Shown: one piece after another, positions 16,473-64,000 of the stretch | Position numbering within the stretch: position 1 is the first letter of the stretch | How the letters are laid out: the number at the start of each line of letters is the position of its first letter | IMG/VR virus record: IMGVR_UViG_3300032170_000128 | Location: 3,072 to 67,071 of that record | Source of the DNA: a virus | Lineage: Duplodnaviria; Caudoviricetes | Strand: one strand, 5' to 3' | DNA: 64,000 nt | Notes under the pieces: generated by a model | Seen by the model: only the letters and a program-made list of their open reading frames with translations | What the model was told of the DNA's origin: nothing | Databases searched by the model: none | Made by a program: the position numbers and the translations under genes

Positions 16473-17741
16473 TTATCTGACCTTGAGGTTCTTGATGAAT
16501 ACGCATGCGTTCAGGTTCTCAATCGCGATGTCGGAGCGTATGGAGTAGAAGAAGTAGGTCGACTCCTCAGCCGCCTCCCTCTGGGTCTCCATCTTGATGT
16601 CCCTCTGCAATCCGATAATCAGGTTGTTCTTGTGTGTTAAAATGCAGTCGCTTCCATCCAGGGTGACTTCCTGGACCGGCTCGGCATCTGTTCCCTCATG
16701 CAGCCACTCGAGATTATCTACCAGAGTCAGAGATACTCCGGCCTCAATCGAAGCGATCTCCCCGATCTCGGATTTGTACTCGAGGGCATCTTTGTGGATC
16801 CAGACATAGTCGCCGACTGTGAAATTGTCTGTAGCGGCTACATTGAGAACCTTCTGACCCGCGGCTGAGTCCGCATCGACTGTCGTATCGCCCCCGCCTG
16901 TTACGAAGACCGGAAGGTCAGTCGGGAAAAGCGGTGCTGAAACGATGGGAACTTTTCCATACTGGATAGCCCCATCACCCAGAATGGCCTTGTCGCCGAG
17001 CACAGTCGCACGTGCGGCAAGGGCATCGATGTAGTCCTGCACGAGCTGGTCGTTCATGAAAAACCTGAAGTTCGCGAGTCCGAGCCTCTTGTACTTTGAG
17101 GGAAGGCTCTTCAGCGCCTTTGAGAACTTGAACTCCCAATCAAAGGGTGCATCCCCGGTATGCTCTGCTATGTATCCGTTGGTGTTCGTGAAGTCGGTGC
17201 TGAGACGGGCATCCAGTTTGGTGGCCGAACCGGTCACCTTATTGGTCTGGGTAAGGATCCTGTGTCTCCAGCCGTTCCAGACATCAAGCATGGTCTTGGG
17301 TTCGTCCTCACCGGCAACCATAGTGGAAAGGAAGTAGGCGAGTGCCAGTTCGTTTCCGATCTGGGCTCCAATCATCTTCAGGAGATGGTCAATGAAGGCC
17401 TCTCCCTCGATGTTGTCCTCGAGGTCGTCGTCATGGACTACTGCCGCCCCCCTTGCCTTCTTCGAGTTGAGGACAATCAGGTCGTGTACGATACTGGTCT
17501 TGTACTTGGCCGCGCCGAAGGCCGCCTCTGGCCACAGCATATCGCCCACGCTCAGGCCGATGGCCCGGAGGTTCCTTGAGCTCTTGGCCATCTTCACCAT
17601 TCTGGCGTGGTCCTTGAGCACGGACTGGTCGATGATGTAGTCCAGGAATCGGTCAGCCTCCTCCGGCGTGAAAGCAATATCGGTAGGGAACATCCCTTTC
17701 TTGATTGCTGCCTTGGACAGCAGGTTCTTTGCTGTTTTCAT
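16473..17741 (-). CDS. Major capsid protein (HK97 fold) with inserted beta-rich domain
   Basis: FTPEEADRFLDYIIDQS, GNELALAYF, NLIIGLQRDIKMETQRE...YFFYSIRSDIAIEN; follows scaffold. Confidence 0.9.
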   Translation of the reverse strand: MKTAKNLLSKAAIKKGMFPTDIAFTPEEADRFLDYIIDQSVLKDHARMVKMAKSSRNLRAIGLSVGDMLWPEAAFGAAKYKTSIVHDLIVLNSKKARGAAVVHDDDLEDNIEGEAFIDHLLKMIGAQIGNELALAYFLSTMVAGEDEPKTMLDVWNGWRHRILTQTNKVTGSATKLDARLSTDFTNTNGYIAEHTGDAPFDWEFKFSKALKSLPSKYKRLGLANFRFFMNDQLVQDYIDALAARATVLGDKAILGDGAIQYGKVPIVSAPLFPTDLPVFVTGGGDTTVDADSAAGQKVLNVAATDNFTVGDYVWIHKDALEYKSEIGEIASIEAGVSLTLVDNLEWLHEGTDAEPVQEVTLDGSDCILTHKNNLIIGLQRDIKMETQREAAEESTYFFYSIRSDIAIENLNACVFIKNLKVR

Positions 17742-18722
17742 TTATTTTCCTCCTTCTTCTGGAAAGAACGAAGGCCACTTGGAACTTTTCTCCGTCTCGT
17801 CCTCATCCTGGCCCTTGAGGCTCTTCTTGGTCCCTTTCTTCTCCTCCAGCTGTTTGACTCTTTTCTTCAGACCCTCCATTTCCTTCTCGACTTCCTCCTC
17901 CTCTTTTTCTTTTTCCTCTTCCTCCTCTTCCTCGTCCTCTTCGTCTTCTACCTTCTCTTTCTTTGTCTTCACCTTTTTCTTTTTCTCTTCCTCCGCCTCT
18001 GCCTTTTTCTCGAAGAGCTTGTCCATCTTTTCCGAGAGACTGTCCATCTTCTCCTCTATGAGGATAATCTCAGCCGATTTCTGGGCATCTGTTTTGATGA
18101 GGGACTCGAGAGCAATTATCGCCTTCTCCAGCGTCTTGTATTTCTCCACTGCGTTCTTGATCAGTTCCCTTGTGGCTTTCGATAGCTTCGCTCCGGCCTT
18201 CTCCACATCCTCTTCTTCCCCCTCTTTCTCTTCCTTCTCTTTCTTTGCGGGGTATCCGTAGCCGTAAGCGGCGTATTTGGCGAGTGTGTTGATGCACTCC
18301 TTGATCTCATCGGGGAAGTCTGCTTTGAACTTGCTCAGAGTGGCTACCACCGCCTTGAGTGCTTTGGCCGCATCGGGCGGGATCACCTTCTCCGCCTTCT
18401 CGAGCTTCTCCATTTCCTCGTCGGTCAGTTCGTCCTCTCCGATGAAATCCTTTATCATTTCTGACAATTTTTTCTTCATGGTCTTTTCTCCTTTTCTCTT
18501 GGAAATTATTTTGACGGCAGAATCTTCAAGAGACTCTCCGCATCCAGGACACTCCTCGCTAGCACTTTTAAAAAAGTCTACGAGGGCTTCCTCATGCCCG
18601 CACTCGCAGACGAGATAGTTTCCATCGCCTGCGGCTTTCGTGAAGAGGAACTTCCTCTTCGTGGCGGGCACATCGACAAGAGATATTTCCTCAGGCTCAA
18701 TCTCTTCCAATCTGTTGGGCAT
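17742..18722 (-). CDS. Scaffolding protein
   Basis: N-terminal EISLVDVPA motif, small CxC...CxxC knuckle, then Glu/Lys-rich coiled coil; directly upstream of capsid. Confidence 0.8.
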   Translation of the reverse strand: MPNRLEEIEPEEISLVDVPATKRKFLFTKAAGDGNYLVCECGHEEALVDFFKSASEECPGCGESLEDSAVKIISKRKGEKTMKKKLSEMIKDFIGEDELTDEEMEKLEKAEKVIPPDAAKALKAVVATLSKFKADFPDEIKECINTLAKYAAYGYGYPAKKEKEEKEGEEEDVEKAGAKLSKATRELIKNAVEKYKTLEKAIIALESLIKTDAQKSAEIILIEEKMDSLSEKMDKLFEKKAEAEEEKKKKVKTKKEKVEDEEDEEEEEEEKEKEEEEVEKEMEGLKKRVKQLEEKKGTKKSLKGQDEDETEKSSKWPSFFPEEGGK

Positions 18723-18947: not shown

Positions 18948-21900
18948 TTAAATTTTCTCCACCTTTCGCCGATGAGCCAGACCGGCCATGGAGAACCCCG
19001 TTACCCTCCCTTCTTTGATGTCCTTCCATATGCCGGCATCCAGGACTCGGATTATCAATACCCATGACCCTTTCTTCACCTTCTGCTTGTCCACCTCAAA
19101 GTTTGCCGGGACTATGTAGTTCTCCAGGATGTTGATCTTCTGCGTTATCTGCTCGCCCTTGTGCTGGAGCTTGAATTTTTTGGAGTGTTCCATGTAGTAG
19201 TAACAGGCGTCCCTTATTTCTTTCTCCGTCGCATAGTCCCCCTGGACATCCTCCTTCATCGGCTCGTAGACGATGCCGCCCACTATATGCTCCTCCTCCG
19301 ACACCTTGAAGATGGGGACCTGTATCTCCTCTCTTTCCAGAAGGTCCCTTTTTTTGAACTTCACTTCCTTTATCTTTCCGGCCAAACCGTCCCACCATTC
19401 CTCCCAGCCACTCTGACCATAAATCACTTTTCCAGCCACCACGACCCGGGGCCTTCCAGCCGCTCCTGTATCGCACAGCGAATGGAGTCCTTCCATTCCG
19501 TCGAGCTTTTCGCTCATGGCTTCCGCCTCATTGTCCTCTCTGAGGTCTCTCATCCTGAACACAACGAAGGCAACCCTCTCCTTGCTTTTTCCTTCATCCG
19601 TTGATCTTATTTCTATTCTCTCTATGCTGTTGAGTTGCTCCAGCCATCCGTCTTTTATATGCTTGTCGACTTCCAACCCTTTCCAGCTCTTTTTAGGCGA
19701 GTCTGTTCTTCCGGCGAGAGGTTCTTCCGGCAGTTTTCCATAAACGGCTTCGTATGCGAATGTCGGGCTGTTGAGCTTCTGTCTTTGTTTTTCAGCCTCC
19801 TCTTCCTTGAGCTTGGATATCATCCAGACCCGTTCGCCTTTCTTCCCGGCCTCGGTCACCGGCACATAAGCCATGAGATATGTTCCTTCCGGAATGAGTT
19901 TGCTGCCTTTGAACACTAGCTTTTTGGCATGCTTGTCCTGCGGCTCTACGGCCTCGAACGTGAAGCTGTCCAGCAGGAGCATCGCCCCGTGCAGGTTCGC
20001 CGTGGCCCCGGCTTCTCCCGGCGGGAATATCTCCATCCTGTTCTTGCCGGCGTCCATCCATTCCACAGGCCCCCGTATGGTCTCCGCCTCCGGCTCTTCC
20101 TTGCGCGGCACCTTCCATCCGAACCGAAGCTTCCCTCCCTGCTCCAGCTTCTTCAGCTTGTCCAAGCCCGAGAGATTGCCTACCATTATCTCGCCACCTT
20201 CGAAGTAGTCATCGCCCTTCCTCACCATCCGCAGGTCTATGTGGCAGCCCTGCTCGCCGACTGCACCCTTGAGGAGGAGCTTCAGCCTCAGGGGGTTGTG
20301 CTTGGATCTCACGGCCTCGGCCGATGCCTTCTTCAGCGCCTCCACCTTTTCTTCCTCTATGCCCATGATATGAAGTTGCAGGACCGCCCTTCCGGCGTCT
20401 CCGACCACATAGTCAATTCCCCCCTCTTTGATCTTTGCGAATTTTGCCTTTAATTCATCTCTTATATTGGGATTGGGATTATCCCCAAATTTCTTACCTG
20501 CTTCTCCATTTTTAATTTCTTTTACATAATCTATATCGCTGAAATTTCTCCTATCATGCTCTTCATTTATCCACTCCTTAAAATGCTTCTCACAAAACCA
20601 AGCATGTGCTATCCCATTTGCCCATATAATTTCATAATCTGGGGGGTCAGAACACCTCATGCATTGGGTCCTTTTATGCCTTGCCTTCTGCAGGATGTTC
20701 GCCCGCTCGGCTATGTCCATCGCCTGCTTCGCAAAATAAGGCTCTTTCCTGTCTTTGTCTATGTCCAATACCCTGGCGCCCAGCCACTGGAGCTTCTTCT
20801 CCTGAGGGATGATCTCTTCGACGCCCATGGTCAGAATCTCTCCGGGTTCTGCCTTCATTTTCGTGTTATAGCATTTGCCCAGGTTGATGTATTCTTTGCC
20901 CCTGAATTCTGTCAGGTTCTCGAATCCGCTGTCGCCCGGCAGCAGCCCGCAGGTGTAGTTGTAGTTACCGCCCTTGACCTCGTGGCGTTCCAGCACTATG
21001 ACTTTGATCTCGGCCTCCCGCTTTATCTTGGCCCAGGTCTCGCAACTTCCGTCGGTGTCCCACTTGCCGTCAAGCGTCTTTATCAATATGCCCTCGCTCT
21101 GCGGAAACTCCGCCAGCTTCCTGAACTGCTGCTCAAGACCTTTCCTATCCTTCACCACATTGTACGAGGTAAGGCCAAAATGGGGGTCGCTTTTGAGGTA
21201 TTTGCTGAAGAATACTTCAAGGCTTTTTCTCCTCTCCGATAGGGGCTTCTCGTGCAGGTCTTCCTTCCAGTAGGGGAGATCGAACATCGTGGCCTTGATA
21301 ACATCGCCTTCCTCTAACTCGGGTTTGTCGGCCATGAGAGTCATAAGCCGGATTCTGGGCAGTGCCTTGCCGTCCCGCTCTATTCCCATACCGCAGTCGA
21401 TTATGAAATCGTCCGGTATCTTCTTCAAGGCCTCAGCCAAAGGAGCTAGTTGCTTTGTCCTATCCTTGTTTCCTTCGGTCTTGAGCCTCACCTTGTCGCC
21501 TGCCTTCTCCATGATGAAGCGAAAGGCATTGAGCTTCTCTTCCACATCAAGCGGGAATTTGTCCTTCGCCCAGTTCCAGACCTCCTCCACGGAGAAAGCC
21601 TCCGTCAGCCCGGCCATCGTCGGCTTTGGGGGAATAAACTTTCCGAAAGGTGTCAGGGCAGCTTTCTTTAAATCCTCTATATTAAGTACTGCGATCGCGG
21701 AGTTCGATTCCTCGATCTTTCTTATCTTCCACTCATCGCCGAAGCATTTCTTGAAATCCTTGAGTTCCTTGAACTCCTGCTTGTGCGTCGGGTCCATCCT
21801 CTCTCCCAGTGGACTCAGGATTATGATTCGCTTCTTTGCTATCCGACAAGCATCCTTGAGCAGCTTCTCCGGGGACTCCAGATGTTCCAGCGCATGCACG

Positions 21901-24900
21901 CTTATCACATTGTCGAAGGAACTGTCTTCGAATGGAAGCTCATCTTTCTCAAGATCAGCCTTCTTAGTCTCAAGGTCTCTTTCCTTGCAGTATCCCAGGG
22001 CGATATCGCTGTTGTCCACGCCGGCTACTTTCCTGCCCGATCGCTCCAGCAACTTCAGAAGCCTGCCTGTCCCGCAACCGAGGTCCAATACGCTTCCCTC
22101 AGCCAGGCTGTTTATCACCTCTAGGTTGTCCCTCATAAGCATTTCGTCCCAGTCATCAAGGCCCTCGAAATACTCTCTTTCTCCTTTTGTTAAGTAAATT
22201 CCTGTTTTCTTCAAAGGGAAATTGGAGATGAGAAGCTCGGCTCTAAATTCCTGATTCGGGATGCTTCGCCAATTCTGAGGACTCTTCGTTCTAACTACAT
22301 TGAATTCTTTAAAAAATATCCTATTCTCCCTGTTATCGTTGAGCGATAAAATGAATTTCCCCTTTATTTTTCTTAGCTGAGCCAATAAATCTTTTTTTTC
22401 AACCCCATGTTTTTCAGCCTCTGTGACAGCTTTAGTTCCAGGATAGGGCGGATCAAGATAGAAAAAACTATCTTGAGAGTTAAACCTCTCGATTATTTTC
22501 CTGTAATCTTTATTAAATAATTGCACATTTCCAAGTCTCTGTTTAATATCAGGCAACCGCTTATACAAAGTATCTTTATAATCATTTTTCCTTCTGTCGT
22601 CCCTTGCAAATGTTTCTTGCATGCCTGCATAACTCCATACTTTAGTCAACAAAAATTTATGGAATCTTTCAACATCGTCCTTGGGGGCCAGAGCCTTTAA
22701 TCTCTCAAAGTTAAGATTGTTGTAGTTCCAATTCAGATTTCCTAATTCCTTCATACCTTTATCTTCTAATTTTTTTAAAAAACTATAAGCGAACATAATC
22801 TCAGAATTTATATCATTTATCACTTCAACTTCGCTCGGCTCTTTGGCAAACAGCACAGCTCCGCCGCCTACGAAGGGCTCCACATAAGTCTTATGTTCTG
22901 GGATGTAACTTACTATGGTCTTGGCCAGATATCTCTTACCGCCCGGTGAACCGAAGGCCGACCTGGTGCCTTTCTCGATTTCCTCGTCTGTTTCTCCACT
23001 GACCCCATCTGTGCTTTCTTCTTTTGCTAGGTAAATGTCTGTTTTCTTTAGGGGGAAATTGGAGATAAGAAGCTCGGTCCGTGTCAAAGTGGGTTTAAAT
23101 TCATCTATCAGTTTGCCTGTTTTAACTTTCTTTAATTCATAACTCACAAATAGCTTTCTATTTTTTAAGTTGTCAGGCAAAGATAAAATAAATTTCCCTT
23201 TTAGAGAGTCTACAAATTGTTTTAGTTCATTTATATCGATTTGCAAATCTTCAAAATTTGCTGTCTCTGGATATGGCGGGTCTAAATAGAAAAAGGCATC
23301 TTTTGAATCAAATTCTTTCAGGGCTTTATAGTCCTTATTTAAAATCCTGACTTTAGAAAACCTTTCCTTGATTTGTTCTAATCTATTAACTCCGTCCCAG
23401 CTCTGATTTAATCTAAGCGGATTTGGCTTTTTGCTTTTGCTCGAAAATGACCCCCACCTCAGCATAATAAACTTATGGAATTTATCTATGTTATTAGCTG
23501 GTGTGACTTCTTTTAATTTCAAAAATTTAAGATTAGTTAATTTCCAGTCTTTTTTTCTCAATTCAGATAAGTCATCTTCGGTGACACCCTTGATAAATTT
23601 GTATGCAGAGGTTATCCCTGGGTCGAGGTCGTTTATTATCTCGTTCTCGCTCGGCTCTTTGGCGAACAGGACCGCCCCTCCGCCCACAAAAGGTTCTATG
23701 TAAGTCTTGTGCTCGGGAATAAATCCCACTATGGTTTTTGCTAAGTATCTCTTCCCTCCAGGAGAACCGAAAGCCGGCCTGATGCCTTTCTCGATCTCCT
23801 CGTCTGCGCTTTCTTCCTTCGCAAGATAAATGTCTGTTTTCTTTAAGGGAAAATTAGAGATGAGAAGCTCGGTCCGGCTATGCTGCCAGGAGCCGCCCAC
23901 GTCTATCTGCTGGGAGGTCCTGACCTTTTTTATTTCGAAATCTTTGAACAGCTCCCTGTTTTTTGAATTGTCATTCAGACTCAGGATGAATTTGCCTTTG
24001 AGCTCGCAACAGAATTTATGGAGTTCTATCATATTGATTTCGCCGCCCATCGCTCCTGTTTCAGTTTCCGGATAAGGGGGATCGAGATAGTAGAATGAAA
24101 AAAACGAGTCCCTTGAATCAAAAGTTTTCAATTCCTTATAATCTTTATTGAAAATTTGAACGTTTTTAAGCCTTTCTTTTATTATCGGGAGCCTTGTTAA
24201 AAATGTCTCTGCCAAATCTGTCCCCTCCCGGTAATTGTCGTAGTTTCTTCCCAGCTTCCCATAACTAGCCGTCCTTACATAGATGAATTTTCTAAACCTT
24301 TCTCTGGGGTTTGAAGGCCTATGACTTTTAAGTTTATCAAACAAACTTTTCTTAATGACCCAGTCCATGGCTTTTAAGGATTTATAGTCATCTTCCGTCA
24401 TGTTTTTAATGAACTGATAAGCGAATGTTATCTCTGAATCTTTATCATTGATTATTTCTCTCTCGCTTGGCTCTTTAGCGAATAAGACAGCGCCTCCTCC
24501 TACGAAGGGTTCAATATAAGTTTTGTGTTCTGGAATAAAACCCACTATGGTTTTGGCTAAATATTTCTTGCCGCCAGATGATCCAAAAGCCGGACGCACC
24601 CCTTTTTCTAAATCTTCGGGCTTGTGACAGATACCGCCGGCCTCTTCCTCATCACCGCATATCAGGCAGCGCGGATGGCCGTTGGGATGCGTGTATTTTG
24701 CCGGCTTGAACTTGTGCGGCCACTCGGCTTTTTTCCTGTTCTCCCTTATCCTCTCCGTCTCCTCGTCACACTCTTTGCGCTGGGCTGGCATGAGGCCCTT
24801 GCTCACATCAACACTCTCTTTGACCCTGATTATCTCCATCTTGTCCTTTGCCCTGAGCACAAGGTCGAAGAGAGGTATGTATGAGCTATGGGGACCCGAG

Positions 24901-25361
24901 GGATGGTAGATGAATTCCATGTCCTTGTGCAGGACCTTTGCGAGAGTCCTTCCCAGCTTGAGTTCGAGCGTCTCGTCCCTCTGGCCTTCGGGGGTTCTTA
25001 TGACGATGTCGACATCGCCGGCTTCCTTGGGGTTTCTGACATAGGACCCGGCTATGGAACAGTAGTCGGGGATCACCACCACATCCCCCAGGCTGGCGGC
25101 GGAGAACTTGAAGATGGCGGAGTCGAAGACGAACTTGTCCAACGAACTCACCATCCTGGGCGAGATCAACCTCTTGGCCATCTCCTTGAGCAGAAGCCCA
25201 TAGCGGTTCAGGAAGCTCTTTTTGCTCAAGTCTCCCAGACATTCCTTGCCCGTCTTGTAGAAGTGCTTGTCCCAAGTCTGGATGAATCGGGTCCTCAGTA
25301 TTTCCAATTGTGAGTTGGAAGCCCTGGAAAGCCCGCTTTCTGTCACCTGTTCTATGTACAA
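18948..25361 (-). CDS. 2137-aa multidomain head polyprotein: nucleotidyltransferase + 3x Dam-like N6-adenine MTase + class I SAM MTase + ATP-dependent ligase-like + LigD phosphoesterase-like + unknown + XkdF-like prohead protease
   Basis: GSYVR...GDVDIV; three AFGS.GGK...EPFVGGGAV...YLDPPY units; VLDLGCGTG; EEKLNAFR/FD/EGILIK/WAKIK plus OB fold; LQLH...HIDLR; C-terminal VGGIVYEP...DVQGDY...HKG...GSW...GFSMAG. Confidence 0.85.
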   Translation of the reverse strand: MYIEQVTESGLSRASNSQLEILRTRFIQTWDKHFYKTGKECLGDLSKKSFLNRYGLLLKEMAKRLISPRMVSSLDKFVFDSAIFKFSAASLGDVVVIPDYCSIAGSYVRNPKEAGDVDIVIRTPEGQRDETLELKLGRTLAKVLHKDMEFIYHPSGPHSSYIPLFDLVLRAKDKMEIIRVKESVDVSKGLMPAQRKECDEETERIRENRKKAEWPHKFKPAKYTHPNGHPRCLICGDEEEAGGICHKPEDLEKGVRPAFGSSGGKKYLAKTIVGFIPEHKTYIEPFVGGGAVLFAKEPSEREIINDKDSEITFAYQFIKNMTEDDYKSLKAMDWVIKKSLFDKLKSHRPSNPRERFRKFIYVRTASYGKLGRNYDNYREGTDLAETFLTRLPIIKERLKNVQIFNKDYKELKTFDSRDSFFSFYYLDPPYPETETGAMGGEINMIELHKFCCELKGKFILSLNDNSKNRELFKDFEIKKVRTSQQIDVGGSWQHSRTELLISNFPLKKTDIYLAKEESADEEIEKGIRPAFGSPGGKRYLAKTIVGFIPEHKTYIEPFVGGGAVLFAKEPSENEIINDLDPGITSAYKFIKGVTEDDLSELRKKDWKLTNLKFLKLKEVTPANNIDKFHKFIMLRWGSFSSKSKKPNPLRLNQSWDGVNRLEQIKERFSKVRILNKDYKALKEFDSKDAFFYLDPPYPETANFEDLQIDINELKQFVDSLKGKFILSLPDNLKNRKLFVSYELKKVKTGKLIDEFKPTLTRTELLISNFPLKKTDIYLAKEESTDGVSGETDEEIEKGTRSAFGSPGGKRYLAKTIVSYIPEHKTYVEPFVGGGAVLFAKEPSEVEVINDINSEIMFAYSFLKKLEDKGMKELGNLNWNYNNLNFERLKALAPKDDVERFHKFLLTKVWSYAGMQETFARDDRRKNDYKDTLYKRLPDIKQRLGNVQLFNKDYRKIIERFNSQDSFFYLDPPYPGTKAVTEAEKHGVEKKDLLAQLRKIKGKFILSLNDNRENRIFFKEFNVVRTKSPQNWRSIPNQEFRAELLISNFPLKKTGIYLTKGEREYFEGLDDWDEMLMRDNLEVINSLAEGSVLDLGCGTGRLLKLLERSGRKVAGVDNSDIALGYCKERDLETKKADLEKDELPFEDSSFDNVISVHALEHLESPEKLLKDACRIAKKRIIILSPLGERMDPTHKQEFKELKDFKKCFGDEWKIRKIEESNSAIAVLNIEDLKKAALTPFGKFIPPKPTMAGLTEAFSVEEVWNWAKDKFPLDVEEKLNAFRFIMEKAGDKVRLKTEGNKDRTKQLAPLAEALKKIPDDFIIDCGMGIERDGKALPRIRLMTLMADKPELEEGDVIKATMFDLPYWKEDLHEKPLSERRKSLEVFFSKYLKSDPHFGLTSYNVVKDRKGLEQQFRKLAEFPQSEGILIKTLDGKWDTDGSCETWAKIKREAEIKVIVLERHEVKGGNYNYTCGLLPGDSGFENLTEFRGKEYINLGKCYNTKMKAEPGEILTMGVEEIIPQEKKLQWLGARVLDIDKDRKEPYFAKQAMDIAERANILQKARHKRTQCMRCSDPPDYEIIWANGIAHAWFCEKHFKEWINEEHDRRNFSDIDYVKEIKNGEAGKKFGDNPNPNIRDELKAKFAKIKEGGIDYVVGDAGRAVLQLHIMGIEEEKVEALKKASAEAVRSKHNPLRLKLLLKGAVGEQGCHIDLRMVRKGDDYFEGGEIMVGNLSGLDKLKKLEQGGKLRFGWKVPRKEEPEAETIRGPVEWMDAGKNRMEIFPPGEAGATANLHGAMLLLDSFTFEAVEPQDKHAKKLVFKGSKLIPEGTYLMAYVPVTEAGKKGERVWMISKLKEEEAEKQRQKLNSPTFAYEAVYGKLPEEPLAGRTDSPKKSWKGLEVDKHIKDGWLEQLNSIERIEIRSTDEGKSKERVAFVVFRMRDLREDNEAEAMSEKLDGMEGLHSLCDTGAAGRPRVVVAGKVIYGQSGWEEWWDGLAGKIKEVKFKKRDLLEREEIQVPIFKVSEEEHIVGGIVYEPMKEDVQGDYATEKEIRDACYYYMEHSKKFKLQHKGEQITQKINILENYIVPANFEVDKQKVKKGSWVLIIRVLDAGIWKDIKEGRVTGFSMAGLAHRRKVEKI
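22190..24610 (-). repeat. Three tandem roughly 800-bp Dam-like MTase units with conserved ends
   Basis: Near-identical unit ends at about 22191-22240, 23025-23080, 23820-23875; shared junction TTTCTCGAT(C/T)TCCTCGTCTG at about 22971 and 23787; divergent AT-rich middles. Confidence 0.9.
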
Positions 25362-25461: not shown

Positions 25462-25647
25462 TCATCTTTTTCGCTCGAAAACTATGTCGTTCTTCTGTTC
25501 GGGCAGCGGTTTTGAGTGGTCGTTCTTGCCCGATAAGATTATGTTCGGAATGCCCTCGGGGAATGCCTTGCATTCCGGCCACCAGTCCGCATCCATGCGT
25601 TTATGTCTGCACTTGAGGCATACATTGATATGGAATATCATCGTCAT
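25462..25647 (-). CDS. Small Cys/His protein downstream of MuF (candidate immunity/partner), 61 aa
   Basis: CLKCRH...CKAFPEGIP..ILSGKNDHSKPLPEQKNDIVFE; ATGA overlap with MuF stop puts the start at 25647. Confidence 0.7.
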   Translation of the reverse strand: MTMIFHINVCLKCRHKRMDADWWPECKAFPEGIPNIILSGKNDHSKPLPEQKNDIVFERKR

Positions 25648-27158
25648 CCTCCGGTCAAAATCAGGTTCGCCTTCTTCTGGGCTCCTTTGGGCAAAGACGA
25701 CATTCTGAAGCCTTTCTTCGTAACCCGGCTCACCCATTCGGCCCATGCCTCCCCCCAGTTCATTTCCGCATAACGGGACGGCAGCCAGCCTGTTTTTGTA
25801 TATATTAAATTTATATTTAATCCCACATACTCCCCGTGCGTTAGGACATTCTGCAAAGCATGGCCGAGCTCATGTCTTATTGTCCCTCCTAAAGTAGCAT
25901 CGACATAATATTTGCCTTCTGTGCGGTTTATGATCGCCGATATTTTGGGGTCGACTATGATCTTAGTGCCCTTTTGCATTCTGTCCAGTTTATCATAGAT
26001 GCCCGTGATGGTCCCCGCCGCAGGGTTGTCCGGGCGCCCCATGTTGACATGATAAAATTTTATCTCGCCTTTTTTCAACTTGTTGAAATACCTGGGCTTT
26101 AGCTTCAGTTCCAAAATGGATATCTGTCTGTTGAATTCATTCGCCAATTCCAGGTTCATCTTTCTGAATGCGACTCCCATTTCCTTTATCAGATTCAAGT
26201 GAGATGGGTCCGCACCTTTAAACAAATCCGCCTCTTTCCCATAATAAAAGCCTTTGCTGTTCGCCCAGCTCTCGGCTTCCTTTAAGCTGTTTGCCGGTTT
26301 CCATTTCTCCGGCGCCTTCTCCGCCGGCGTCATTCCGCACCGGCAATCCGGATGCAGAAGATCAGGGAAGTCCGCCCGACGATACACCCTCCCGTCCAGG
26401 GTGGCGCAATCCACGCATGCGTCCGGCGCCGCGAGGTACTGGATGCGCTCCACCCCGAGCTTCTCGTAGCGCATGAGCGTGCCTTCGTGGACCGCCCTTG
26501 CCGACTCCGTCCTGGCGATCGTCTCCGCCCTCAGCTCGTGCATCCTGTTCACATACTTGTCGAACATGGCCTCGCGCCTGGCCGGGCTGAGCCTCCGGTA
26601 CTTCGGCATCGTCTGGAGCTTCGTGTAGTAGTTCGATGCCGCCGCGGTCTGCGCCTTGTTGAGTCCCGCAAGCGGCTTCAGCTCCTCTGTAAGCTGGAAC
26701 ACCGTCTTGCCCTGCGCTATAGCATCAGATACATGGGTCCTGATGGCATCGACGGTCTCGTCCAAGATGTCCGTCACCATGTCCCCGGCATTCGCCGCCG
26801 CCCACTCGACCGCCTCCACATTCAGGACATCGAACTGCTTCGCAAAACCGCCCGCCTTCGACGCCTCTATGATGAGGATGTCGAGGTAGGCCCGTTTCAG
26901 CATCCGCTCGCCCTCGGCCCTGAGCATCTCCCAGTCCGCGAGCTTCTTCACGGCGAGAACCTTCCTTGGAGTCTTGAGTCCGCGTCGCACCTCGCGGTTT
27001 ATGAGTTTCAGCCATCGCCCGACCGCATGCCGGAGTTCGACCTCGGCTTCCCTCCCGGCTACCTCGCGCCGCTTCCTGACCTCCTCCCAGTAGCCTATCT
27101 GTCCCAGGAAGTGGATGATGACAGCGTGAAGCCTTGCCAGCCTCTCATTTTTCCGCAT
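25644..27158 (-). CDS. MuF-like minor head protein with C-terminal zincin metallopeptidase extension
   Basis: RAETIARTE...C..C..LDG...HPDCRC MuF motif; extension has IRHELGH (HExxH) and PSRYA...EAWAE. Confidence 0.85.
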   Translation of the reverse strand: MRKNERLARLHAVIIHFLGQIGYWEEVRKRREVAGREAEVELRHAVGRWLKLINREVRRGLKTPRKVLAVKKLADWEMLRAEGERMLKRAYLDILIIEASKAGGFAKQFDVLNVEAVEWAAANAGDMVTDILDETVDAIRTHVSDAIAQGKTVFQLTEELKPLAGLNKAQTAAASNYYTKLQTMPKYRRLSPARREAMFDKYVNRMHELRAETIARTESARAVHEGTLMRYEKLGVERIQYLAAPDACVDCATLDGRVYRRADFPDLLHPDCRCGMTPAEKAPEKWKPANSLKEAESWANSKGFYYGKEADLFKGADPSHLNLIKEMGVAFRKMNLELANEFNRQISILELKLKPRYFNKLKKGEIKFYHVNMGRPDNPAAGTITGIYDKLDRMQKGTKIIVDPKISAIINRTEGKYYVDATLGGTIRHELGHALQNVLTHGEYVGLNINLIYTKTGWLPSRYAEMNWGEAWAEWVSRVTKKGFRMSSLPKGAQKKANLILTGG

Positions 27159-28656
27159 CCAGAATCCTCCTCATCTCCATCCGCAACTCTTCGAGTGCGT
27201 CGGCGAACCGCCCTCTCTTCTCCAGCTCCTCCTCTCCTGCGGGTTTGAACTGCGATCCCACAAAGCGCTGGTCGCCCTCCGGGTAAGGCTCGCCCATGTC
27301 GAAATGCTTTATCACCTGGTTGGGGGTGGCCGCCCCCATGGCGAAGAGTTTCTCGAACCGCTTCACCTCGGCATCCAGGTCGCGCGTGTCCGACCCCTTG
27401 AGCTTGAAGTCGAAGAATGCCTTGAACTCCCCTTCCCTGTCCTTCTTGTAGAATGTGGGAAGTATCCGCCCGTTGAATAGGAACTCCAGGTCGTACTGGA
27501 GCGGGTAGACCATGGAGTAGATGTAATTTATGTTGGACTCCTTGGCCGTGCTTCCTCCCAGCGACCCTTCCTCGGCTATCCCTATCTTGTAAGGCGGCAT
27601 CGAGTAGGCCACCAGCACCTCGTCCCGCTGCATCTTCACGTAGACCTTGAAAGACCCCTCGTCGGTCTTCTTCGTCTCCAGCGGAATCCACTCCAGCTTT
27701 CCGCCCTCCTCGGGAAGCTGGATCGCCATGGTCTTGTGCGCGTTCTCCGAGCCTTTTATCTCCGTGTCGATGAACTCCATTATTTTCTTGTCGGAGCCCT
27801 CCTCCCATTCGCCCGTGAGGATGACCAGGGCCGAGGGGACCCCGTAATTCTCGAAGAAAGCTAGGTTGTAGTCACGTATCCCGATGAGGGTGATCACCGC
27901 TCCCACCGAACCCAGGATGTTGGGAGTCCCGTAGTAGTCGGAGCGCGAGTAGAAGTTCCTGTAGAAGATCATCTCGTTCGCCCGGTCATCTTCAGCTATT
28001 CCATTCTTTTCCGCCTCCTCCCCCGTGTCCTTGTGGACATCCATCTCGTACCCGAACCGCTTGAACCAGCGGTACTTCTTCTGGCCCCTGACCCGTCGGA
28101 TCTGGCAGTACTTGTTCCCGGACTCGTGGACGCGGACTGTATGTCCGGGGACATAATACATCTCGGCGACCTGGTCGATGTTGTTCCTCGCCAGCTCGAG
28201 CGACCACCAACCGATAGAACCCCAATCCGTTATGAGGCTCTTGAGGATCTGCACCAGCGAGTCCTCCTCGTTCGGCTTCAGGAGCAGCCTCTCCATCTTG
28301 GCTTTCAGCTCCTGGGCCTCCTTGTCCGTCTTGATGTCCACGCCTTCTTTGGGGACCAGCATATGTCCGAGCCCGCCCGCATCCTGGGCGACCTGATCCA
28401 CGCAACGCATGAAATACCCGTTCGACTCGTACAGGTCCAAGAAAGTGGAAGGATTGAAAGGCGGTGTCATCAGCCCCTTCTCCTTGAAGTACTGCTTCTC
28501 CTCCTTTATGGCTTTAGAGCTCTTCTTTATTTCATGGCGTTCGAGCTTCTTGAAGGGGAGCAGCTCGCCTCTCGTGGTGTAGACGAAAACCTTTCCCTTC
28601 CTCGGAGTTGCGGGAGCTTCCTTTGTCCTTTCTTTCTCCAGCGCTTTCGACGACAT
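27145..28656 (-). CDS. Portal protein (PBSX-like)
   Basis: YYGTPNILGS...YNLAFFENYGVPSALV...RDEVLVAYSMPPYKIGI...MVYPLQ pattern. Confidence 0.9.
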   Translation of the reverse strand: MSSKALEKERTKEAPATPRKGKVFVYTTRGELLPFKKLERHEIKKSSKAIKEEKQYFKEKGLMTPPFNPSTFLDLYESNGYFMRCVDQVAQDAGGLGHMLVPKEGVDIKTDKEAQELKAKMERLLLKPNEEDSLVQILKSLITDWGSIGWWSLELARNNIDQVAEMYYVPGHTVRVHESGNKYCQIRRVRGQKKYRWFKRFGYEMDVHKDTGEEAEKNGIAEDDRANEMIFYRNFYSRSDYYGTPNILGSVGAVITLIGIRDYNLAFFENYGVPSALVILTGEWEEGSDKKIMEFIDTEIKGSENAHKTMAIQLPEEGGKLEWIPLETKKTDEGSFKVYVKMQRDEVLVAYSMPPYKIGIAEEGSLGGSTAKESNINYIYSMVYPLQYDLEFLFNGRILPTFYKKDREGEFKAFFDFKLKGSDTRDLDAEVKRFEKLFAMGAATPNQVIKHFDMGEPYPEGDQRFVGSQFKPAGEEELEKRGRFADALEELRMEMRRILDAEK

Positions 28657-29888: not shown

Positions 29889-30368
29889 TCAGCCTGCCCT
29901 CGCAACCTTTGAATTCTGGCATCTCTTTTTTTTAATGGTGGTCGGAAGTCGCTTGGCATGGTTTATCCTGTCTCTCTTAGGCAAACATACCAGCCTTCCA
30001 TTCGCACAGGCGACCACAACCTCCTTCTCCTGGTCAACGAGCAGGGCGAAGTTGGGGGGCAGGGCCTTCTTGGCGGCCATGCACAGTCCGAAGGCCAGGG
30101 TCACTTCTTCTCTTTGTTCTTGTTTAAGGTCAAGGTGCTTCTTCAGTTCTTCCGGGGATAGAGGGATTTCATTGGCATTTACGGGTGAAAGTGTTGTATT
30201 AAATACAGGAAAACCTTTCATTCTCAGGGTATTCTTCTTGTTATTGGGGGAATGCACTTTATGCCTATGTATTACCGTATGTATTCTTCTTATTTCTCTA
30301 TGGGGGTGTAAGAGGAGTAGGAGAGTGGCGGCGGTTCTTTTCTGCGTGTCCCCGGTGCTTGTTCTCAT
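29889..30368 (-). CDS. Hypothetical protein (about 159 aa; start revised)
   Basis: ATGA overlap with MTase stop at 30365-30368; 5' part low-complexity so start uncertain. Confidence 0.45.
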   Translation of the reverse strand: MRTSTGDTQKRTAATLLLLLHPHREIRRIHTVIHRHKVHSPNNKKNTLRMKGFPVFNTTLSPVNANEIPLSPEELKKHLDLKQEQREEVTLAFGLCMAAKKALPPNFALLVDQEKEVVVACANGRLVCLPKRDRINHAKRLPTTIKKKRCQNSKVARAG

Positions 30369-32227
30369 TGTAGCTCCAGTTGCTCGGGTTGTCCGGGCTG
30401 TCCACGCCAGTGGGCTATGCGTCCTCTGGCTATCCCCAGGTATTCTTCTTCCCTCTCTATACCTATGCACTTCCGCCCTGTGTTGTGTGCGGCGATGGCT
30501 GTCGTGCCGGAGCCGAGGAAGGGATCGAGGACTGTCTGCCCCTCACGGGTTACGAGCTTGATCAGCCACTCAAAGAGCTTAATGGGCTTTACGGTGGGGT
30601 GGTTGTTCTTATAGCTTGTTTCATGCTTAACTGTTTCATATCGATAATCATTGTGTTCACATCTTAACTGTTTGCCCGGAGCTTCTTTCATTGCTTTGCA
30701 TCCACAGATATTACAAACAATCAATTTCCTGTCTTTAAAAAGCCTGTCCTTGTTCTCCTCCATCCCCTCCAGCCCCGCATTCCTCTCCGACCTTGACGCT
30801 TTAGCACAATAATAAAAGCGGGAGGCACCTCCTGAGTCGCCGAATCTTATTCCATTATTTGGGCTTCCTTTATTGTCGTAAAATATACTTTGAGGATTTT
30901 CTTGTACGGCAGTCCCGACAGCCCTTTTACTGCCAGCAGAATGAACGCCCCTTTGCACGCTCTGCTCGTCCAATAGTCTCAATGCACATTCTTTGTGACA
31001 CAGCCATTCCTCTTGTCCGTAGTTGCATTGCTTGAAGAAGCGGGAGGCCCCACCTGAGTCGCCATAGCTTACCTGAACATCTCCAGCCTTGCCCAATCCT
31101 CCGTGTTCGACAAAAAATCCTTCTTTCCTTCGCACATTGCCTTTTCCGCTCTGCAGGTTTCCGCTCTGTTCATCCAGCATCCTCACCGCACAGTCGGGAT
31201 GGCATCGCCAGGATTCGACTATCTCGTAGCCATCGGAATCTCCTAATTTGCATGGAATCCTTTTATCGAATGGAGGATATGTAACCCCGTTTTTAATCTT
31301 CCTTATGGATTCTGATTGATTTGGGCGGGCATTTCCTTTCACCCTCTTCATCCCCACCTGCACACACTCAGGATGGTGTCCCAGGATTATGTTCGCAGGG
31401 AAGCGACCTGAAGCTGGAGTATGGGTTGACCCTCCTTTTCCTGTAAATGATTTTTCCCCACTTGGTCTGCCTGCTTCGTTATGATGGGGTTGACCATTGA
31501 TTCTTGTCTCCTCCACATTCACCGCCCCGACATTCCACTTCAGCACATTGTCCACATACGACCCCTCGGGAGGCTTGACCGCCCAGACTATCGGCTCGTA
31601 GGCAGGCTTGATTCCGCCGACCTTGAAGCCGTCCCAGTACTCGCCTTCGGGAGTGAGGGGTTGAGTGATAAATCCGTCTCCCACGCCTCCTTGCAATCCG
31701 TAATCTGCTAAGTTATTTTCTCGTTTCTTCCTGTCATTCGGATTCTTGGCAATCTTTTTCCTTCTTCTATTCACCTCTTTAGTGCTTATCCCCAAAATCT
31801 TTGCATCTACCAAAACAGAGACTTCCTGTGCCTTCGGGAATCCCGAACCATAAACCCACATCAGCGTATCCTTGATAATGAACCCCGTATCCTCAACAGC
31901 ACACATCAGCCTATGGAATGTTCTTGTTCCGCCCATCACCAGCATTGACCCGCCAGGCTTCAGCACTCGGTAGGCTTCGGCGAGCCATTGGGCGTGCCAG
32001 AGTTGGGCTTCGAGTCCAGCCCTGTATTGAGATAAATTCTTGCCAATAAATGGGTCTCCTTGTTTTTGAATGCCCAAATCAGTCAACTTGCCATTTCTCT
32101 TGTCCCATAACCGATCCCACTTCTTCCCCATGAACTCGAGTCCATACGGAGGATCCGTCACGATTGCGTCCACAGAGCAGTCCTTCAGGGGGAGCGTCTT
32201 TGTGCTGTCCGCCCTGATCATCACCAT
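30365..32227 (-). CDS. N6-adenine/N4-cytosine DNA methyltransferase, beta class (620 aa)
   Basis: TDPPYGL (motif IV) near N terminus, HPTVKP and DPFLGSGTT (motif I) near C terminus. Confidence 0.92.
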   Translation of the reverse strand: MVMIRADSTKTLPLKDCSVDAIVTDPPYGLEFMGKKWDRLWDKRNGKLTDLGIQKQGDPFIGKNLSQYRAGLEAQLWHAQWLAEAYRVLKPGGSMLVMGGTRTFHRLMCAVEDTGFIIKDTLMWVYGSGFPKAQEVSVLVDAKILGISTKEVNRRRKKIAKNPNDRKKRENNLADYGLQGGVGDGFITQPLTPEGEYWDGFKVGGIKPAYEPIVWAVKPPEGSYVDNVLKWNVGAVNVEETRINGQPHHNEAGRPSGEKSFTGKGGSTHTPASGRFPANIILGHHPECVQVGMKRVKGNARPNQSESIRKIKNGVTYPPFDKRIPCKLGDSDGYEIVESWRCHPDCAVRMLDEQSGNLQSGKGNVRRKEGFFVEHGGLGKAGDVQVSYGDSGGASRFFKQCNYGQEEWLCHKECALRLLDEQSVQRGVHSAGSKRAVGTAVQENPQSIFYDNKGSPNNGIRFGDSGGASRFYYCAKASRSERNAGLEGMEENKDRLFKDRKLIVCNICGCKAMKEAPGKQLRCEHNDYRYETVKHETSYKNNHPTVKPIKLFEWLIKLVTREGQTVLDPFLGSGTTAIAAHNTGRKCIGIEREEEYLGIARGRIAHWRGQPGQPEQLELQ

Positions 32228-58116: not shown

Positions 58117-59199
58117 TCACTTCCCCTTGAAGAGCTGGCCTTCACCGCCTCCCGGTTCCCCCGGCATTTCCTTCTCCAGTTTGTTGTTCAAATCAGTGAT
58201 GGCGAGCTTGTAATCGTTTACGGTCTTCAGGCTTTTAATCCTCTTCATCTCATCGGTCGATAATGCGATTCCGTACTCTTCATATTTTTCCTTCAGGTTG
58301 TCCAAGTCCCGCTGTAGCACTTTGAGCTCGGTCTCCTCGAATGCCTTCTTTTCATCTATCGGGGTAGGGGACTTTGCTTTCTCGGACGGCTTTGCCTCAG
58401 CCTCAGCAACCTCCTCTTCCTCCTTCGACCAGCCACCCGGGGGATAGAATTGGTCGTCCTCCTCAAGGTCGGGAGAAGGTAGCAGTATTCGCGATGGTCT
58501 CACCTGTGCATATTCCAATAGTTGCTTGAGGGATGTGTTGGCTAAATCCAGCTTCAGCGTGTGATGTGTACTTGATTTGAGCTTTCCTTTCTCTGTCCGC
58601 GAAGCAGTCATCTCTTCCCTTTTGAGAACAAGAGGAATCATCTTTATCCTCTCGCACAGGGACCTGATGTATTCGATGCCACTGTTTATGTCGATGATGG
58701 AGTTTTTCGAGCTTGTGTTGATTTGCCACACGCCAGCACCCGGGACCTCGTAGAGCAAGAACTGAAGGAGAGCTTGGCGCATGCACCTTTTATTCTCCAG
58801 CTGCTCGCAGGGGCATGGAATTGTCCTGAAGCCATTCTTCTCCTCATCCCATGTCCTCGCATTGATTCCGTCCCCTATGCACTTCAGAACGCCGTATCCG
58901 TAGCGCATGTACCACTGCTGGAAGAAGACCTCCTCATTCTCGACCGGGAACATGATCGGCAACTCTTTGGGCTTCTCCCCGTAAATTGCCTGGACTTCGG
59001 GCGGGCAGACGAAGTAATCGACCTCTTTGGGCCTGAAGATATACCCCGTGCCTTCGCAGATACGGCAGGTCAACATGGGCTTCTTGTCGGGGTTCTTCTC
59101 CTTGCACTTGCAAGGAACTGTCGTTTTTTCTTTGATGCCTAGGCGAATTTTTCCAAGCCGGGGCAGACGCCTGCGTTTGGATAGCTCATTTATCGGCAT
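58117..59199 (-). CDS. Recombination directionality factor-like (Gp3-like) recombination protein
   Basis: RLPRLGKIRLG, PKEVDYFV, KC.GDG, CPC, GVWQINTSS pattern. Confidence 0.65.
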   Translation of the reverse strand: MPINELSKRRRLPRLGKIRLGIKEKTTVPCKCKEKNPDKKPMLTCRICEGTGYIFRPKEVDYFVCPPEVQAIYGEKPKELPIMFPVENEEVFFQQWYMRYGYGVLKCIGDGINARTWDEEKNGFRTIPCPCEQLENKRCMRQALLQFLLYEVPGAGVWQINTSSKNSIIDINSGIEYIRSLCERIKMIPLVLKREEMTASRTEKGKLKSSTHHTLKLDLANTSLKQLLEYAQVRPSRILLPSPDLEEDDQFYPPGGWSKEEEEVAEAEAKPSEKAKSPTPIDEKKAFEETELKVLQRDLDNLKEKYEEYGIALSTDEMKRIKSLKTVNDYKLAITDLNNKLEKEMPGEPGGGEGQLFKGK

Positions 59200-62947: not shown

Positions 62948-64000
62948 ATGAGCTTGATAAAGCGGGGAAAGTATTACTGGCTTGATATCCGCGTCGACGG
63001 AAAGAGGGTCAGGAGATCGCTTAACACAACAAAAAAGCCGGTGGCTCTGATGATGTTCAATAAGAAAAGAAAAGAACTCCTGGCAGAACACGACGGGAGC
63101 AAAGTCCGATTCTCTGATTTCTGCAAGAAATATCTTGATTGGGCCAGGTCCTCCAAACCGGCCTCAGCCATTCGGGAAGAGCAGAGGCTTGATAAGATTC
63201 AGAAGTTTTTCGCCGATCTCCAGATAGTCTATCTGGACGAAATAACGCCATTCCACATAGAGCAACTAAAAACCGAACTAAGGAAGACGGGATTAATAAA
63301 TGATTCAGAAAAACAGAAGGGGGTCTCTAAGGCCACCGTCAACCGCTATCTTCAAATCTTGAGGGGGCTTTTTTATAAGGCCATCGATTGGGAGATTTAT
63401 AACAAGCAGAATCCTCTAAAGAAGATTAAATTCCACAGGGAAAATACGGTCATAGAGCCTCTCTCAGACATCCAGGTGGAAAGAATAATTCATGCAGCCA
63501 GGAAGATAAGCCGGGAACCCCATTCTTCCCTGCAGAGATCATTCTATGATGTTTGCATGCTGGCTATTAATACCGGCATGAGGAAATCGGAGATCCTGAA
63601 TCTAAAATGGGAGGACCTTAATGAGGACGAGCTTTTAGTGAATGGGAAAGGCGATAAGATCAGATATGTGCCTTTGAATCCCAAGGCAAAAGCGATAATA
63701 ATGAGACAACCGAGAAAAACAGAATGGGTATTTGATATCTCAAACCGCCATCAGCCCGATTTGTTCAGGCGGACGGTCGGCCAGATAAGAAAAAAAACCG
63801 GGGTCGATTTCCGTTTTCACTCTCTGCGCCATTACTTCGCGACGAAACTCATCGGGAACGGGATTGATTTTGTCACGGTGGCCGAGCTTCTCGGTCACAG
63901 CAAGATCAGCACAAGCCTGATTTATTCCCATACGGACAAGGAGAGGAAAAAGAAGGCGGTCGAGGCTTTGGAGCAGGATGTCAATAACGCAGGCATTTAG
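62948..64000 (+). CDS. int: Tyrosine integrase
   Basis: TGMRKSE (R), GKGDK (K), FHSLRH (HxxR), LLGH, IYSH (Y); Arm-type N terminus. Confidence 0.95.
   Translation: MSLIKRGKYYWLDIRVDGKRVRRSLNTTKKPVALMMFNKKRKELLAEHDGSKVRFSDFCKKYLDWARSSKPASAIREEQRLDKIQKFFADLQIVYLDEITPFHIEQLKTELRKTGLINDSEKQKGVSKATVNRYLQILRGLFYKAIDWEIYNKQNPLKKIKFHRENTVIEPLSDIQVERIIHAARKISREPHSSLQRSFYDVCMLAINTGMRKSEILNLKWEDLNEDELLVNGKGDKIRYVPLNPKAKAIIMRQPRKTEWVFDISNRHQPDLFRRTVGQIRKKTGVDFRFHSLRHYFATKLIGNGIDFVTVAELLGHSKISTSLIYSHTDKERKKKAVEALEQDVNNAGI

Follow-up and report, generated by a model that had tools for sequence, protein, structure and literature searches.

The window analysed here is a 64,000-nucleotide stretch of a 67-kb IMG/VR provirus (record IMGVR_UViG_3300032170_000128), and this report concerns P0001, a giant open reading frame (ORF) on its minus strand in which three Dam-like DNA methyltransferase units of the D12 class lie in tandem. 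The frame runs uninterrupted for 2137 codons (6.4 kb). The initial annotation had presented the units as separate cassettes; they are instead domains of one 2137-amino-acid (aa) head polyprotein that ends in a prohead protease. The ORF and its domains are located as follows.

18948..25361, minus strand: polyprotein ORF P0001, 2137 aa (ORF list and translation, Pfam and PHROG scans)
24624..25361, minus strand: N-terminal nucleotidyltransferase and Cys/His region, aa 1-246 (weak Pfam match to DNA_pol_B_palm)
23808..24623, minus strand: D12 unit A, aa 247-518 (motifs, profiles, AlphaFold2 model)
22992..23807, minus strand: D12 unit B, aa 519-790 (motifs, identity profiles)
22176..22991, minus strand: D12 unit C, aa 791-1062 (motifs, identity profiles)
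21801..22130, minus strand: class I S-adenosylmethionine (SAM, AdoMet) methyltransferase domain, aa 1078-1187, directly following unit C (Pfam)
21021..21557, minus strand: ATP-dependent DNA ligase adenylation domain, aa 1269-1447 (Pfam)
18969..19313, minus strand: XkdF-type prohead serine protease domain, aa 2017-2131 (PF14550, E 6e-26; phrog_3017, head maturation protease)

Pfam recognised at least eight domains in P0001, and the PHROGs scan was consistent with these calls. Their order runs from a Pol-beta-like nucleotidyltransferase with a Cys/His stretch through the three D12 domains to the class I SAM methyltransferase, and on through the ATP-dependent DNA ligase and further modules to the XkdF (S78_2) prohead protease. 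The N-terminal region terminates in ...EDLEK, directly abutting unit A. When the head-module ORFs were scanned, the XkdF domain of P0001 was the sole protease detected. Since the units are fused to a prohead protease within a head polyprotein, their production and delivery likely differ from those of separate genes.

The proposal of three tandem units of about 270 aa proved correct: the units are direct repeats with start-to-start spacings of 816 and 816 nt, or exactly 272 aa per unit (22176-24623). The motifs AFGS, FVGGG, DPPY and ELLISNFPLKKT each occur three times in P0001, with AFGS and FVGGG recurring every 272 aa. FVGGG, which corresponds to AdoMet motif I (FxGxG), lies at aa 286, 558 and 830, and DPPY, the catalytic motif IV, at aa 427, 694 and 970. 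Within each unit, motif I is followed by a variable recognition region and then by motif IV, as the D12 (alpha) class requires, and both the AdoMet and the catalytic motifs are intact in A, B and C. The Pfam D12 profile PF02086 matched three stretches of the protein (E 4e-63, 213.9 bits against a curated cut-off of 22), each of which scored 74-91 bits in the genome search.

Structure prediction, which covered unit A of the three, gave an AlphaFold2 model with a mean confidence (pLDDT) of 84 that combines a Rossmann catalytic domain with a helical DNA-binding domain, the Dam fold. Its best matches in the PDB were EcoDam, Mcbe1, DpnM and T4Dam, with probability 1.00 and template-modelling (TM) scores of 0.6-0.78 (0.70-0.78 against EcoDam); those to EcoDam, DpnM and T4Dam span the whole model. 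The profile alignment of the units extends from the N-terminus of EcoDam (KKNRAF...) to near its C-terminus, and each unit therefore corresponds to a whole Dam-sized enzyme. We conclude that each unit is a complete Dam-like (D12, alpha-class) N6-adenine DNA methyltransferase module, whose activity is predicted from its sequence. With EcoDam, T4 Dam and DpnM (PDB 2g1p, 1yfl, 2dpm) unit A shares the fold over its full length (TM 0.62-0.78), and the order GGK, FxGxG, helical DNA-binding domain, DPPY is the same; unlike these enzymes, to which they are only 17-23% identical, the units form a fused run of three in one polyprotein.

The sequence differences between the units are concentrated in their middle, which we delimited as the target-recognition domain (TRD) at unit positions 61-150, with approximate borders.

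24174..24443, minus strand: TRD of unit A, helical DNA-binding region (identity profiles; model helices 63-151; aligned to the EcoDam DNA-binding domain)
23358..23627, minus strand: TRD of unit B, approximate borders (identity profiles)
22542..22811, minus strand: TRD of unit C, approximate borders (identity profiles)

Columns invariant across A, B and C made up 44/53 of the N-terminal block (N-block), 20/88 of the TRD, 33/84 of the catalytic core and 18/23 of the C-terminal block, and the TRD differed from the remaining columns with a Fisher p of 4e-7. Divergence along the units is thus far from uniform, as the initial annotation had anticipated, and its description of the cores as AT-rich was also borne out (GC 0.27-0.40 in the cores versus 0.47-0.53 at the junctions). 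It had also identified the divergent middle with the target-recognition region, and the model of unit A, which matches EcoDam, DpnM and T4Dam over its full length, agrees: the variable stretch is, by this model, the predicted DNA-binding and target-recognition domain of a Dam enzyme. Conservation was lowest (6-16% identity) in the loop that corresponds, in the alignment, to the recognition hairpin of EcoDam. Because this loop is wholly different across A, B and C, specificity for GATC cannot be assumed.

Scaffold and TRD identities are 0.72 and 0.38 for A-B, 0.61 and 0.32 for A-C, and 0.59 and 0.26 for B-C. Between proteins that share a recognition type, the corresponding values are 0.81 and 0.84 (A-P0005), 0.88 and 0.81 (P0024-P0029) and 0.75 and 0.64 (B-P0013). 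That the TRD is conserved like the scaffold within a lineage indicates that each type is probably held by purifying selection.

The relationships of the three units point to a mosaic origin. The closest relative of unit A is the D12 domain of P0005, the only one in that protein (82% identity), and that of unit B is the lone D12 of P0013, encoded at locus L008 (70-72%); for unit C no relative exceeded about 52% identity. A clade uniting A, B and C was rejected by the approximately unbiased (AU) test, both with TRD columns (p = 0.0016) and with scaffold columns (p = 0.0064). The rest of P0001 is likewise composite: aa 1-519 are P0005-like (81%), the match ending at the A|B border, where the P0013-like unit B begins; aa 1051-1849 are P0360-like (83-84%), and the protease domain is P0005/P0024-like (78-80%).

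Within the D12 domains, TRD and scaffold tell different histories. The TRD of unit C groups with that of P0046 (support 97), a pair that the scaffold columns reject (p = 2e-11), and the scaffold tree places P0055 as sister to P0015_d2 (support 98), a pairing that is rejected by the TRD columns (p = 0.014). Unit A and P0024/P0029 show a scaffold identity of 0.76 and a TRD identity of 0.33 (p = 1e-11). DNA was compared for two relatives, L008 (= P0013) and L037 (= P0029, from a Desulfobacterales metagenome-assembled genome, MAG); only over the C-terminal half was synonymous identity between unit A and L037 high (0.64-0.80), the N-block giving 0.31-0.44.

A survey of 41 proteins with several D12 domains, comprising 72 within-protein pairs, gave a median TRD identity of 0.26 (maximum 0.46), against a between-protein background of 0.25. 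The nearest relative of a domain lay within the same protein for 2/97 domains, and no recognition type was repeated within any of the 41 proteins. As within-protein TRD identity equals the background, the arrays collect different types and are not fresh tandem duplicates. This non-redundancy is the best indirect support for the proposed differing specificities.

To the search with the three-unit segment we owe 117 giant proteins with D12, most of which also carry the ligase and XkdF. Among these relatives, 76 had a single D12 domain, 27 had two, 14 had three and 1 had four, and a profile search of 1.84 billion representatives likewise returned at most four matched D12 stretches; 31,423 library proteins matched the D12 profile with E values no higher than 1e-3. 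Each of the four domains of P0003 (1635 aa, an ENA metagenome protein), the sole four-D12 protein found, belongs to a different subclade, and XkdF was not detected in this protein. Three near-identical database copies of P0001 from different assemblies all hold three units. In the GenBank phage collection we found distant single-domain relatives only, at no more than 36% identity. A viral-contig scan with a single protein query gave no match; alignment-based scans recovered relatives. The prediction that related phages would carry other numbers of units, or chimeric ones, is matched by the 0-4 modules seen and by pairs with about 76% scaffold and 33% TRD identity.

The closest backbone relatives, P0358 and P0360, were found with the C-terminal half and are 78-84% identical to P0001 over the class I methyltransferase and ligase; neither holds a D12 copy. 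In both, the N-terminal region ...AGIEK runs directly into ESREYFEALDNWD, with the class I methyltransferase straight after that region, and in P0001 the three units lie exactly between ...EDLEK and (G)EREYFEGLDDWD. This junction match shows that the D12 block was inserted cleanly and in frame where two domains meet.

Compact forms occur in bacterial genomes: a D12x2-XkdF protein of 745 aa in a Polyangiaceae MAG (L041:9848-12082), and D12x3-XkdF proteins of about 1100 aa in a Phycisphaerae MAG and a deltaproteobacterial assembly (L049:8978-12286, L053:9065-12358). These three are very GC-rich, with a GC content at third codon positions (GC3) of 0.94-0.98. Across phyla, XkdF is commonly fused to D12, whether in minimal D12-XkdF proteins (about 430-460 aa) or in the D12x2- and D12x3-XkdF forms.

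The D12 block is compositionally foreign to the surrounding backbone. Its GC3 is 0.42; elsewhere in the ORF the value is 0.68, and the neighbouring head genes have 0.63-0.80. The nearest D12 relatives of the block occur in phages of 37-44% GC. Separately, P0001 contains another in-frame insert that is rich in AT, at 20442-20678 (minus strand, aa 1562-1640; GC3 0.33 versus about 0.7 around it), which is missing from the backbone relatives P0360 and P0013 and has weak similarity to a segment of P0034.

Short acidic runs followed by [L/I]-E-K-G precede the D12 units.

24600-24615, minus strand: acidic linker before unit A
23784-23799, minus strand: acidic linker before unit B
22968-22983, minus strand: acidic linker before unit C

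The same arrangement is found before most D12 domains of relatives, and ...IEK likewise closes the N-terminal region of relatives without D12. The [L/I]-E-K stretch may be an inter-domain linker or a candidate protease site. The pattern [LIVFM][ED]K[GSAT] was considered as a general cleavage code and set aside; it occurs just 4 times in P0001, 3 of them preceding D12 units.

P0001 carries three Dam-like modules head to tail in a prohead-protease polyprotein, and within the family TRDs have moved between scaffolds. Taken together, we think it probable, with some reserve, that the three modules serve anti-restriction methylation with several specificities. The modules would be joined by the short acidic linkers ending in [L/I]-E-K. 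They would methylate three different motifs, and the phage genome would thereby be shielded from several restriction systems at once. On an evolutionary timescale, recombination between the polyproteins of related phages, at module borders and inside conserved motif blocks, would have built up the array. More speculatively, the modules might enter the procapsid through the protease fusion, be cut at the linkers and be delivered with the DNA. This capsid-cargo idea arises because the modules are fused to the sole recognisable prohead protease in a head-gene slot, and delivery may by analogy resemble that of the P1 Dar proteins, a precedent for capsid-delivered enzymes (PMC12707154), or of T4 internal proteins.

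Several points weigh against this account. EcoDam, DpnM and T4Dam have GATC in common despite low identity, so divergent TRDs are no proof of differing motifs. Packaging, cleavage and injection are suggested solely by gene position and the protease fusion, the [L/I]-E-K linker motif is only a candidate cleavage site, and late in infection the methylases could do no more than act in the cytoplasm. The choice of groups for the incongruence tests was made after the trees had been seen, and P0005, P0024, P0358 and P0360 were compared as proteins, not as DNA. For unit A and P0024/P0029, whose whole case is the contrast in identity, the TRD columns do not reject the scaffold clade (AU p = 0.54), and the contrast could reflect rapid divergence, not replacement.

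In its fullest form, the cargo idea pictures a combinatorial Dam-like kit of 0-4 modules, distinct from DarB, whose modules and TRDs pass between phages at conserved motif blocks, that is loaded into the capsid, released at [L/I]-E-K and injected, and that methylates the incoming genome at several motifs before restriction can act; we offer this tentatively and regard it as doubtful. A real possibility, if somewhat short of an even chance, is that the modules act in the producing cell only, where progeny DNA would be methylated before packaging and the protease fusion would provide late co-expression and release, with no injection. Most phage orphan methyltransferases act in this way. Methylation within a capsid would be without AdoMet, and the four free-standing methyltransferase genes of this prophage (below) are presumably cytoplasmic in action. 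What speaks for cargo over action confined to the producing cell is that D12-XkdF fusions recur across phyla, down to the minimal forms of about 430-460 aa, and that D12 fusions co-occur with ligase and DNA-end enzymes, which co-delivery with DNA explains more easily, in line with the argument made for polyvalent proteins (PMC5512222).

Two or all of the D12 domains might instead cooperate as strand-specific partners on an asymmetric site, giving fewer than three specificities. M.FokI consists of two fused D12-type domains, one per strand. Like P0001, this methyltransferase of a Type IIS system combines complete D12 domains in one polypeptide; its two domains each act on one strand of a single asymmetric site, alongside a restriction enzyme. 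Some D12 pairs and triplets of the present family are co-inherited in fixed order (P0010/16/20/21/26; P0006/8/9/11/14/17/18), and D12-D12-XkdF proteins are frequent in Myxococcota genomes, as such partnership would lead one to expect. We consider it unlikely for P0001, which unlike M.FokI has three modules in a phage head-gene context: the A-type and the B-type are each the sole D12 in a close relative (P0005, 82%; P0013, 71%), and the same-backbone relatives P0043, P0029 and P0039 hold one D12 at the position of C. Since modules of the A-type, of the B-type and at the C position occur singly, none of the three types needs a partner. It also weighs slightly against cooperation that the ORFs scanned against family libraries included no recognisable restriction endonuclease gene, although not every ORF was scanned.

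We give similarly little credence to the view that the units are redundant or decaying copies, that is, that they share one specificity such as GATC or that some are inactive, their TRDs having drifted after old duplications. Dam enzymes that share GATC specificity are mutually only about 20-30% identical, and the observed-to-expected ratio (O/E) of GATC in the window is 0.60, so GATC may matter to the phage. Against this view stand the open 6.4-kb frame, the intact AdoMet and catalytic motifs of all three units, TRDs that are conserved like scaffolds within lineages (0.84 and 0.64), the failure of A, B and C to form a clade, and recognition types that never recur within a multi-domain protein.

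The ends of the units bear on how the array changes. They had been described as near-identical DNA, which is not what we observed: in nucleotides the units were 72-81% identical across the N-block and 86% identical at the junction, and the longest exact matches were 16-19 nt. At synonymous codons the N-block gave an identity of 0.46 and the junction one of 0.63, where 0.39 is expected at saturation, and the D12 block held just two inverted repeats, both weak. Recent gene conversion at the junctions was considered and is not claimed (synonymous matches 22/35 versus 49/107 in the N-blocks, Fisher p = 0.12). The C-terminal block ELLISNFPLKK.IYLAK closes the D12 domain in relatives whichever domain comes next. 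Given this family-wide block and the near-saturated flank DNA, the ends reflect protein constraint, not DNA repeats; they would be kept by purifying selection throughout the family, with no sign of ongoing homogenisation in the sequences.

Type I HsdS and Type III Mod systems often switch rapidly by means of long identical repeats or invertases. P0001 resembles them in its conserved flanks around variable TRDs and in domain exchange between alleles, but its flank DNA has diverged nearly to saturation, and exchange can be seen in distant relatives only. A rapidly switching locus is marked by long identical repeats, direct or inverted, at its exchange points; none were found in the D12 block, and we infer that the array is neither programmed nor rapidly switching. 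A live, recombination-driven specificity array, in which near-identical flanks often change copy number and swap TRDs within the phage population, is very unlikely: the exact 816-nt period, the flanks conserved at the protein level, the A|B and B|C junctions, which are the stretch where the DNA is most alike (86% identity, synonymous 0.63), and the differences in copy number and recognition type among relatives would suit it, but the flank DNA is diverged, with exact matches of at most 16-19 nt, N-block synonymous identity close to saturation, a junction excess of p = 0.12 and no notable inverted repeats, and the three database copies from different assemblies agree in their three units. The earlier idea of an expandable array therefore stands as regards copy number, which ranges from 0 to 4 among relatives, and finds no support as regards active recombination, given the diverged flanks and the lack of long identical repeats.

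The architecture of P0001, with diverse domains in one polypeptide among head genes, fits that of the polyvalent proteins of phages and conjugative elements described by Iyer, Burroughs, Anand, de Souza and Aravind in 2017 (PMC5512222), whose methylase archetype is P1 DarB. Like these, P0001 is a giant multidomain protein in a late/head cluster beside MuF and portal genes, and it joins DNA-modifying and repair-type enzymes to a peptidase that might cut it into working units; the role proposed for such proteins is to shield the incoming genome from restriction. Unlike P0001, the methylase described there is of the DarB type, with an SF2 helicase and LPD36, and not D12/Dam. The peptidase of that work is a zincin-like metallopeptidase, a different family from the C-terminal XkdF serine protease domain of P0001, and XkdF is not mentioned in it; tandem arrays of whole methyltransferases and a 0-4 copy series are likewise absent from it. 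In the literature, we found no description of D12 arrays or of XkdF-fused methyltransferases beyond this general polyvalent-protein concept (Iyer 2017). New here are a copy series of 0-4 whose insertion point is defined, the mosaic make-up of P0001, TRD and scaffold trees that disagree, and the non-redundancy rule.

A further parallel is offered by the multispecific C5-cytosine methyltransferases of the Bacillus phages SPR, phi3T and rho11 (Trautner et al. 1996, as cited in PMC12707154). These too combine several exchangeable target-recognising domains in one phage gene against several restriction systems, using one catalytic core with tandem recognition domains to make 5-methylcytosine. P0001, unlike them, repeats the whole enzyme, with its own motifs I and IV in every unit, and is predicted to make N6-methyladenine (m6A).

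If the three specificities are real, stacking Dam-type enzymes and swapping their TRDs would be a simple natural route to wider protection from restriction. The many natural scaffold/TRD chimeras of the family could help to decode how Dam-like enzymes read DNA, and might be a source of new m6A methyltransferase tools. Because fusion to a prohead protease recurs, the long-suspected delivery of DNA-modifying and repair enzymes as capsid cargo by some phages becomes testable through a defined protein set; were the cargo idea true, the phage would have an anti-restriction system that is pre-loaded and adjustable in breadth.

P0001 lies within a head module. Upstream of it are MuF and portal genes and an extra methyltransferase gene, and downstream are scaffold-like, major capsid and tape-measure genes; L008 and L037 likewise keep their head-module genes in the order TerL, portal, MuF, polyprotein, scaffold and capsid.

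27145..28656, minus strand: portal protein gene (family scan)
25644..27158, minus strand: MuF-like head morphogenesis gene, the upstream neighbour (family scan)
17742..18722, minus strand: scaffold-like gene (phrog_3017, a protease-scaffold family, matched over its C-terminal half)
16473..17741, minus strand: major capsid protein gene (phrog_1623)

Four free-standing methyltransferase genes were identified by family scan.

30365-32227, minus strand: N6_N4_Mtase gene, 620 aa
51942-53036, minus strand: MT-A70 gene, 364 aa
54447-56279, minus strand: N6_N4_Mtase gene, 610 aa
56260-57459, minus strand: C5-cytosine methylase gene, 399 aa

With the three D12 units, these bring the prophage to at least seven DNA methyltransferase domains; the class I SAM methyltransferase domain of P0001 is counted apart. 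The natural reading of the intact D12 motifs together with four more methyltransferase genes is that the phage would invest heavily in self-methylation against restriction.

Several short palindromes are rarer than expected over the whole window, with O/E values of 0.39 for ACGT, 0.49 for CTAG, 0.60 for GATC (z = -6.9), 0.62 for GCGC and 0.73 for GGCC; GTGCAC was seen 0 times against 7.9 expected. This avoidance is of the restriction type, but it assigns no motif to the units.

No tRNA genes were found in the window. Two further genes, identified by family scan, lie near its right end.

58117-59199, minus strand: Gp3-like recombination directionality factor gene
62948-64000, plus strand: tyrosine integrase gene

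The presence of this pair is consistent with an integrated temperate phage.

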